Positions 23,016-23,287 of a stretch of DNA of 64,000 nt are shown here, piece by piece. The notes beneath the pieces were generated by a model. It saw nothing but the letters and a program-made list of their open reading frames with translations. It was not told the DNA's origin and made no database searches. Every line of letters starts with the position of its first letter. Position 1 is the stretch's first letter. Source of the stretch: an uncultured bacterium (GTDB lineage Bacteria > Verrucomicrobiota > Kiritimatiellia > RFP12 > UBA1067); NCBI GenBank assembly GCA_902779565.1, contig CACZCD010000001.1, forward strand, positions 3,929-67,928, written 5' to 3'. A program made the position numbers and the translations under genes.

Positions 23016-23287
23016 ACGGGCTTCTGACGGACACACCACGGACAGGTTACGGTCTTGCCAAGGACATCTGACGGACGGCACACGGACACACTACGGACAA
23101 GTTACGGACTGGCCACGGACGCGCAACAGACTTCATACGGGCTTAGAACGGACGAGCCACGGACAAAATACGGGCGGAACACGGACTAAAACGGACTTCT
23201 GATGGACAGCATACGGACGGATCACGGGCTACAAACGGACGCGGCCACGGACTGGCAACAAACACAAGCACAAGCGCCTTTCCCGCG
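23016..23287. repeat. Array B: 22 ACGGAC-type hexamers at an 11-bp period, plus a terminal block inverted relative to 7428-7490
   Basis: Core starts run from 23016 to 23247. 19 of the 21 intervals are exactly 11 bp. 14 cores are exact ACGGAC and 8 are single-substitution variants. The spacers are not conserved. Confidence 0.95.

Follow-up and report, generated by a model that had tools for sequence, protein, structure and literature searches.

The 64,000 nucleotides analyzed here (referred to below as the window) come from contig CACZCD010000001.1 of assembly GCA_902779565.1, positions 3,929 to 67,928, and the object of interest is array B, a run of 22 ACGGRC hexamers repeating every 11 bp on the plus strand at 23016..23252 (237 bp). 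Array B has an inverted partner, array A (7463..7652, minus strand; 14 ACGGRC units, mostly at 11 bp), and the two lie exactly at the ends of an inserted island of 15,852 bp (7432..23283) that parts yqeY from rpmE in a rumen bacterium of the Kiritimatiellae. The bacterium is placed there by its YqeY, which is 87% identical to proteins that carry this name at NCBI. The host gene just beyond the left end of the island is rpmE (7147..7359, minus strand), identified as the gene for ribosomal protein L31 from its translation and from the Pfam Ribosomal_L31 domain of identical genes in relatives; just beyond the right end lies yqeY (23309..23758, minus strand), which stands 96 bp from rpmE in relatives that do not carry the island. 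The only other array in the 64 kb, array B' (22615..22700, plus strand; 4 + 3 ACGGAC units), is located within the island and starts 30 nt past the stop codon of a gene for an AraC/PAS regulator.

The two ends of the island share a common anatomy. Proceeding from the outside inward, each consists of a 31-bp terminus, the phased hexamers (14 or 22) and the terminator hairpin of an outward-reading cargo gene. The left terminus (7432..7462; GGAAAGGCGCTTGTGCTTGTGTTTGTTGCCA, beginning GGAAAGGCGC) is a perfect inverted copy of the right terminus (23253..23283; TGGCAAC...GCGCCTTTCC) by alignment and by blastn, so that the termini read GGAAAGG..CCTTTCC. The inverted likeness of the two ends is perfect over these 31 bp and nearly so over about 65 bp, comprising the terminus and the first three units; further inward the cores of arrays A and B are still in register and their spacers differ. 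The hexamers have the same strand polarity towards each terminus, with 22 on the yqeY side and 14 on the rpmE side. Immediately inside array A is the hairpin that terminates the last cargo gene (7670..7696, minus strand; GGCGGGCGG..CCGCCCGCC and a T-run), and just inside array B is its counterpart (22938..22975, plus strand; GATGTTCA..TGAACATC and T6); both arrays therefore sit in DNA that is shielded from transcription of the cargo. The earlier note, which was made from the DNA letters of the window, had drawn array B as the interval 23016-23287. The array itself extends to 23252, and what follows it (23253-23287) is the 31-bp terminus together with a 4-bp target-site duplication. A C-rich, G-poor tract of ~200 bp occupies 22740-22935, between array B' and the terminator hairpin.

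That the arrays mark the ends of an insertion is established by comparison with the empty site. Six contigs, all from other samples of rumen and gut, have this empty site and code for an identical L31 protein (L132, L133, L134, L136, L138 and L139). The gene order of all six is AI-2E transporter, SASA esterase, yqeY, a 96-bp spacer, rpmE, prfA, U32 peptidase and 5'-nucleotidase; the window has the same genes, but its yqeY and rpmE are 15.9 kb apart. The boundaries of the island given above come from comparison of the junctions at this break in synteny and are borne out by excision in silico: removal of 7432-23283 and of one CGCG yields an unbroken alignment to the six relatives, 94.4-95.8% identical over about 2,045 bp with two gap openings. 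The sequence CGCG stands on both sides of the island in the window (7428..7431 and 23284..23287, as placed by the junctions against the empty sites) and only once in the empty sites. The continuous alignment after excision, the inverted ends and the CGCG duplication together identify arrays A and B as the ends of the insertion, and array B is very probably its terminal module. The ends of the island show the classical anatomy of a transposable element, namely terminal inverted repeats and a 4-bp target duplication. Since CGCG is only 4 bp long and palindromic, it may instead be a chance repetition or the crossover core of a recombinase. The island differs from its flanks in base composition (58.4% GC vs 62-63%), and its presence is polymorphic: it is carried by the window contig, L164, L141 and L002, and is missing from the six contigs with the identical L31. 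The junctions that its excision would leave can be written down, as ..catccccg(n)CGCGcaccctcttgcg.. for the resealed host site and ..GCGCCTTTCC-CGCG-GGAAAGGCGC.. for a circle or joined-end form. Contigs with a YqeY 85-89% identical have other neighbors and no array beside yqeY. In yet another strain (L137:1170-3010) the same yqeY-rpmE spacer holds a different insertion with a gene for a sodium:solute symporter; there a degenerate copy of the 31-bp terminus adjoins rpmE, with no array. It seems that the yqeY-rpmE spacer has served as an insertion site more than once.

The composition of array B, as read from it at the outset, is confirmed. The 22 core starts recorded in the earlier note match exactly on direct reading, as do the variants of the core: 14 copies of ACGGAC, four of ACGGGC, and ACGGTC, AAGGAC, ACAGAC and ATGGAC once each. 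Nineteen of the 21 intervals are 11 bp; the two exceptions, one of 10 (23181 to 23191) and one of 12 (23235 to 23247), cancel each other, and phase is thereby restored (in total 231 = 21 x 11). The core positions carry 1.06-2.0 bits of information and the spacer positions 0.03-0.44 bits; correspondingly, unit-to-unit identity is 0.88-0.91 (about 89%) in the cores and 0.19-0.31, the random level, in the spacers. The window as a whole contains 80 ACGGAC hexamers (44.7 +/- 6.7 in shuffles), and for the 237 bp of array B the expectation is ~0.2; the 14 exact copies found there, on one strand, cannot be chance. A weak higher-order repeat of 33 bp (match 0.68 at lag 33 vs 0.62 at lag 11) indicates that the array grew through duplication of three-unit blocks, and the 33-bp block is common to arrays at different loci. 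The spacers have been randomized since that growth and the cores and their spacing have not; this shows directly that both the hexamer and its phase are under constraint. Core and spacing also hold when arrays are pooled: 83 units, from five arrays in three genomic contexts, have A-C-G-G-(A>G)-C as their shared motif, their spacers carry no information, and the interval is 11 in 58 of 77 cases. Core and spacer are not equally conserved in array B, as they would be in a minisatellite that grows by slippage, and the proposal that it is a phased, constrained array rather than a plain slippage satellite stands. The simplest account of this geometry would be a reader that is site-specific and works on a single face of the duplex.

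Two more mundane roles for array B can be set aside. It is not a coding repeat: its 11-bp period cannot be divided by 3, and open reading frames called across it, such as 22996-23202, merely translate that period, as had been noted; array B is therefore non-coding. Nor is the array an upstream promoter element for rpmE, as a consensus scan calls no promoter there; the sequence that can be read as an rpmE promoter (TTGCGC-17-TGGTATCAT) is conserved in relatives without the array, which is thus not needed for it. The window contains no tRNA genes.

The end modules are the best-preserved part of the island across samples. The same insertion is present in L164, from another sample, with arrays B' and B and the terminus identical to those of the window save for a single 1-nt spacer deletion. 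The 170 bp that separate B' from the hairpin have diverged strongly there and include a 20-nt indel, and five differences are found in 37 bp outside the island; the hairpin at the array B end has retained its pairing through base changes. In L141, again from another sample, the terminator, array A, the terminus and the rpmE flank are 100% identical to the window, and the cargo gene beside array A is a different one, coding for a DUF4469-like protein that is no more than distantly related. Similar arrays are also found away from this insertion. A module of four island genes (proteins of 165 and 88 amino acids, HU-HIG and HU-DNA_bdg, described below) recurs elsewhere at 97% DNA identity, in L412, L413 and L415, followed by the same GC-rich terminator and then by ACGGRC arrays at 11 bp with different spacers. 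The copies in L412 and L413 adjoin GH20-type genes and a tRNA gene. In L412 (7700-7776 and 8102-10640) the related HU module and its arrays abut the tRNA gene, beyond which lies a large serine recombinase with a DUF2924 partner; this recombinase probably belongs to a separate integrated element.

Taken together, these properties give about an even chance that array B is a subterminal protein-binding array and belongs to the long inverted repeats bounding a non-autonomous, transposon-like island of 15.85 kb. The mechanism that this suggests can be outlined. Each hexamer would putatively be occupied by one DNA-binding domain. With a period of 11 bp and the DNA slightly underwound, the sites would all lie on the same face of the helix, or a filament would wind gently around it, and a cooperative coating of about 240 bp of DNA at each end might result. 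The two coated ends would then be paired, to be broken and joined at the 31-bp termini. The enzyme, and possibly the end-binding protein as well, could be encoded elsewhere, for example as a transposase supplied in trans; alternatively the end-binder could be one of the island's own HU-like or sigma-4-like proteins.

Several observations weigh against this assignment. No transposase or integrase is recognizable by Pfam, NCBIfam and PHROGs searches of the island reading frames of unknown function, or by Pfam in ten further reading frames of the window, and no gap in the island is large enough to hide a transposase; it follows from the lack of a transposase domain that the element is at best non-autonomous. 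A single insertion site is represented: with rumen assemblies incompletely covered, a blastn search of the collected loci matches the terminus at this locus alone, viral contigs and plasmids give no match, and an exact-pattern scan of Joint Genome Institute (JGI) metagenomes with the terminus returns only chance matches of CTTGTG type. The arrays of L412, L413 and L415 are without a visible inverted partner or a 31-bp terminus in the DNA available. Finally, two metagenome-assembled genomes (MAGs) of Lentisphaeria contain this 11-mer as a plentiful satellite of intergenic DNA, oriented either way, and clustering of the reading frames of 61 Lentisphaeria loci brings out no recurrent transposase.

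The closest working analogues of the island's ends are the subterminal repeat regions of the eukaryotic cut-and-paste transposons Ac/Ds (AAACGG hexamers), En/Spm-CACTA (12-bp motifs) and Foldback (short tandem units). These share with the island a short unique terminus followed by about 200-250 bp dense with a short motif, the greater conservation of the motifs than of the DNA between them, the presence of such regions in inverted orientation at both ends, and non-autonomous copies without a transposase. The island differs in being bacterial, in that the units at one end all point in the same direction and are locked to 11 bp, and in its 4-bp duplication; hAT elements duplicate 8 bp of their target, CACTA elements 3 bp and Foldback elements 9 bp. 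With no transposase recognized for the island, homology to eukaryotic transposon ends cannot be claimed. Among bacterial elements, Tn7 (TnsB), Mu (MuA), IS21 and Tn402/Tn5053 (TniA) likewise have ends that go beyond a simple inverted repeat, with repeated sites and a short target duplication. They have, however, 2-4 sites of about 19-22 bp per end, TG..CA termini and a transposase of their own, and duplicate 5 bp as a rule (IS21, 4-8 bp), whereas the island has 14-22 hexamers at 11 bp, GG..CC termini, no transposase gene and a duplication of 4 bp; of the features that characterize Tn7-like and Mu-like elements, the 5-bp duplication, the TGT..ACA termini and the sites of about 22 bp are all absent from it. 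To the IS5 family, characterized by a 4-bp duplication, inverted repeats that start with GG and a DDE_Tnp_1 transposase, the island's palindromic 4-bp duplication and GGAA.. terminus are a loose fit; the similarity of the ends is not significant, and the island has no transposase gene. Were the island mobilized instead by a site-specific tyrosine or large serine integrase, CGCG could be the crossover core; no integrase is found in it. Hexamers or heptamers with a free spacer and a 10-11-bp period, bound cooperatively and head-to-tail on one face of the helix, are also found in the sites of winged-helix proteins, namely the pho boxes of the PhoB/OmpR family and SARP heptads (11 bp), and in those of the recombination directionality factors lambda Xis and P2 Cox, the latter two being filament-forming, but those are sets of 2-6 repeats beside a promoter or an att core, and the island has 14-22 that are not linked to a promoter. 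Membership in any of the families compared, here or below, cannot be claimed for the array or the island.

An explanation unrelated to mobility starts from the cargo. The island codes for two HU-like proteins, a sigma-region-4-like protein, a radical-SAM activase, a GH28 protein, an FGE-sulfatase-like protein, a glycyl-radical enzyme, a Fic protein and the AraC/PAS regulator, and also for an 88-residue lipoprotein-like protein and a 355-residue protein of unknown family. The four genes of the recurring module lie at its left end, all on the minus strand: a 165-residue protein with a weakly sigma-70 region-4-like helix-turn-helix (9877..10374; NCBIfam TIGR02937, E = 0.0023, below cut-off), the 88-residue protein, whose N-terminus resembles a signal peptide with lipobox (9572..9838; gene call and translation), the 235-residue HU-HIG/DUF4469 protein (8851..9558; Pfam PF14848, PF14734 and PF18291) and the 355-residue HU-DNA_bdg protein (7766..8833; Pfam PF14848), which is encoded by the last gene before array A and has a hypervariable C-terminal domain. 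The arrays could be cis sites for the sigma-4-like, HU-HIG and HU-DNA_bdg proteins of this module, serving as roadblock, insulator, silencing platform or tether, with the inverted ends having arisen since the module was copied to the other side. The recurrence of the module at 97% identity with the same terminator and with arrays of different spacers speaks for such an arrangement, as does the finding that all arrays examined in this clade immediately follow a terminator. Against it, HU-like homologues at 60-69% identity have no array downstream: an obligate partnership of the HU-like protein with the array holds in close relatives and fails at that distance, so the link is a property of this lineage and not of the protein family. 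Arrays B and B' lie 13-15 kb away from the module, L141 has a different gene beside an identical array, and the 31-bp termini and the 4-bp duplication are left unexplained. HU-HIG proteins were, moreover, held unlikely to be sequence-specific by the authors who defined the clade (PMC5499826). A role of the arrays unrelated to mobility appears improbable, if not negligibly so.

The HU-like protein has no phage or viral relatives and no relative of solved structure by sequence. The HU-DNA_bdg genes of the window, L412 (5726-6802) and L415 (814-1935) specify N-terminal parts of 248 residues that are 99% identical in the three contigs, followed by C-terminal parts of ~110 residues that are unrelated; the switch, just past AAAIPPGP, is sharp, and DNA homology between the window and L412 ends at window position 8088. 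From this comparison the C-terminal domain and the array downstream of it look as if they had been replaced together, in the manner of a cassette.

A second alternative takes the array to be a selfish 11-bp satellite or mosaic repeat, specific to bacteria of the Planctomycetes-Verrucomicrobia-Chlamydiae (PVC) group and comparable to BOX and BIME, that seeds in transcriptionally quiet DNA past terminators and is spread by recombination; the inverted ends of the island would then be a by-product, and the core would be kept by the mechanism of spreading rather than by any function in the host or the island. A genome scan for four ACGGAC at 11 bp, with one genome per species, finds at least 117 stretches, and among the matches listed 61 come from the two Lentisphaeria MAGs (JAPXLT01 and JAQVUB01). 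In these the unit consists of ACACGGAC and three variable bases and forms a true satellite with conserved spacers; the (ACACGGACNNN)n runs lie within ~330-bp composite repeats scattered over the intergenic DNA, usually after a gene end and a GC hairpin, and in mixed orientation (the upstream gene is on the same strand in 30 cases and on the opposite strand in 23). This abundance and mixed orientation favor a selfish repeat, as does the 33-bp higher-order block shared between loci, and the Lentisphaeria repeats resemble BOX (boxA-(boxB)n-boxC) and BIME/REP in being composite and intergenic, with a variable number of tandem units and dozens of copies per genome. They differ in unit length, 11 bp vs about 35-45 bp, and the array of the window is terminal to one island, not dispersed. 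The earlier note had held that a ubiquitous, spacer-conserved satellite without positional logic would speak against a protein-binding array. In part this is what is seen: a dispersed satellite with conserved spacers exists in the two Lentisphaeria MAGs, but not in the window, where the spacers are unconserved and the position is highly specific. The window has random spacers and retained cores, which gene conversion or slippage would not yield; its 64 kb contain no more than three arrays, two of which coincide exactly with the insertion ends, and the arrays are invariant between samples while the DNA adjoining them varies. We therefore regard the selfish repeat as a distinctly unlikely origin for array B.

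The intergenic mosaic of these Lentisphaeria genomes (L005-L120, JAPXLT01, JAQVUB01) is made up of ACACGGACNNN, ATCGGACGG, GTCCATT, CCCTGCA and ACAACTT modules; the tandem modules combine with shared hairpin modules, and many contigs end within them.

The genome scan also matched Streptomyces, Bacteroidales, Flavobacteriia, members of the candidate phyla radiation (CPR) and others. In most of the matches from other phyla, as in the Lentisphaeria MAGs, whole units are alike, which is the mark of slippage. Control scans dispose of the idea that conservation of ACGGAC at 11 bp across phyla and viruses could be the sign of a shared reader: in viral contigs the pattern occurs in 44 stretches, the same hexamer at 10 bp in 29 and at 12 bp in 75, and two control hexamers with an identical base composition, likewise at 11 bp, in 59 (CAGGCA) and 38 (GACCAG). 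These counts being comparable, the matches outside PVC are ordinary minisatellites and uninformative about a common reader.

It is very improbable that the array acts as RNA, either in the 3' untranslated region or read-through of yqeY (the GUCCGU strand) or in that of the AraC gene (the ACGGAC strand), so as to titrate an RNA-binding protein. Such a role could draw on the location of the array downstream of genes on both strands and on the resemblance of ACGGA to A(N)GGA, the motif bound by CsrA-type proteins. It is opposed by the terminator hairpins and T-runs that precede arrays A and B on the ACGGAC strand, by the mixed orientation of the Lentisphaeria arrays with respect to genes, and by the strict 11-nt spacing, which is natural on duplex DNA and has no reason on single-stranded RNA. 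Both array strands fold no better than their shuffles (z = +0.35 and +1.53). The Rfam comparison proposed in the earlier note places the array in no Rfam family: there is no match in the whole window at the gathering threshold or at the array locus at E <= 1.

The analogy that the earlier note had placed foremost, a plasmid-type partition centromere (parC-, tubC- or parH-like) bound by a centromere-binding protein, can be given next to no credence: direct repeats in helical phase (19 of 21 intervals at 11 bp) and the DNA-binding genes of the island recall it, but no ParA, ParM or TubZ-type gene is found in the island or its neighborhood (Pfam, NCBIfam) and no plasmid record is matched, so the analogy fails. 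The R1 parC iterons are direct repeats at 11 bp, and in R1 parC/ParR, tubC and parH helically phased direct repeats are thought to be coated into a continuous filament by a small DNA-binding protein; unlike R1 parC, array B is accompanied by no par operon and no plasmid, has twice as many units, and has an inverted twin at the far end of the insertion, 15.8 kb away. Its setting is a core region of the chromosome with rpmE, prfA, rpoC and dnaG, with the empty site in six relatives and the 4-bp duplication described above. Only the geometry of the repeats fits a centromere; the termini show the anatomy of transposon ends and not that of parC.

Returning to the transposon-like island, array B would then be the end of a mobile element with subterminal repeats, a known kind of structure in a new form, and more interesting in its context than alone. 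If this assignment is right, a bacterial mobile element has ends like those of plant and insect transposons, with a short terminus and then dozens of phased short motifs, in contrast to the 2-4 sites of Tn7, Mu and IS21; this would point to further machinery for binding and joining DNA ends in a poorly studied gut phylum. It would also explain how a 16-kb island with carbohydrate and glycyl-radical-enzyme genes entered a core-genome spacer of rumen Kiritimatiellae, and it supplies a signature by which similar islands could be sought, that is, inverted ACGGRC arrays at 11 bp with a 4-bp duplication. A broader conjecture, which we put forward tentatively and which could well be wrong, is that PVC bacteria (Kiritimatiellae and Lentisphaeria) host an undescribed class of mobile DNA whose ends are helically phased ACGGRC arrays of 200-270 bp, read by a protein filament, perhaps of a diversifying HU-like or sigma-4-like protein in place of a classical transposase, and which moves cargo; the Lentisphaeria ACGGAC satellites would be its decayed or miniature derivatives.

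The arrays break short-read assemblies, and many public contigs end at them; short-read contigs from several samples (L002, L003, L165, L166 and L413-L417) end in or beside arrays or the 31-bp terminus. As this breakage is systematic, the family is probably under-represented among public contigs.

Other short repeats are found elsewhere in the window. Two intergenic segments, 4606-4774 and 25360-25430, contain the same pair of short arrays on the minus (sense) strand, (AGGTGGAA)n in up to 8 copies and (ATCAACT)n; the latter is the nearer to the gene and immediately precedes the ribosome-binding site and ATG of genes on the minus strand, and the AGGTGG of these arrays resembles an extended Shine-Dalgarno sequence. 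At 44008-44127, in the C-terminal part of dnaG if the longest reading frame is taken, (GAGGGTT) x 4.7 is followed by a GC hairpin and (CCTCTTC) x 6.4. A long alpha-2-macroglobulin-like reading frame contains, at 35735-35837, (AGGTTGAA) x 5 and, after a gap of ~25 bp, the inverted (TTCAACYY) x 4. An intergenic 15-bp tandem repeat (ATAGACCGGCGTGCT) at 33367-33437 has 4.7 copies with 89% matches.

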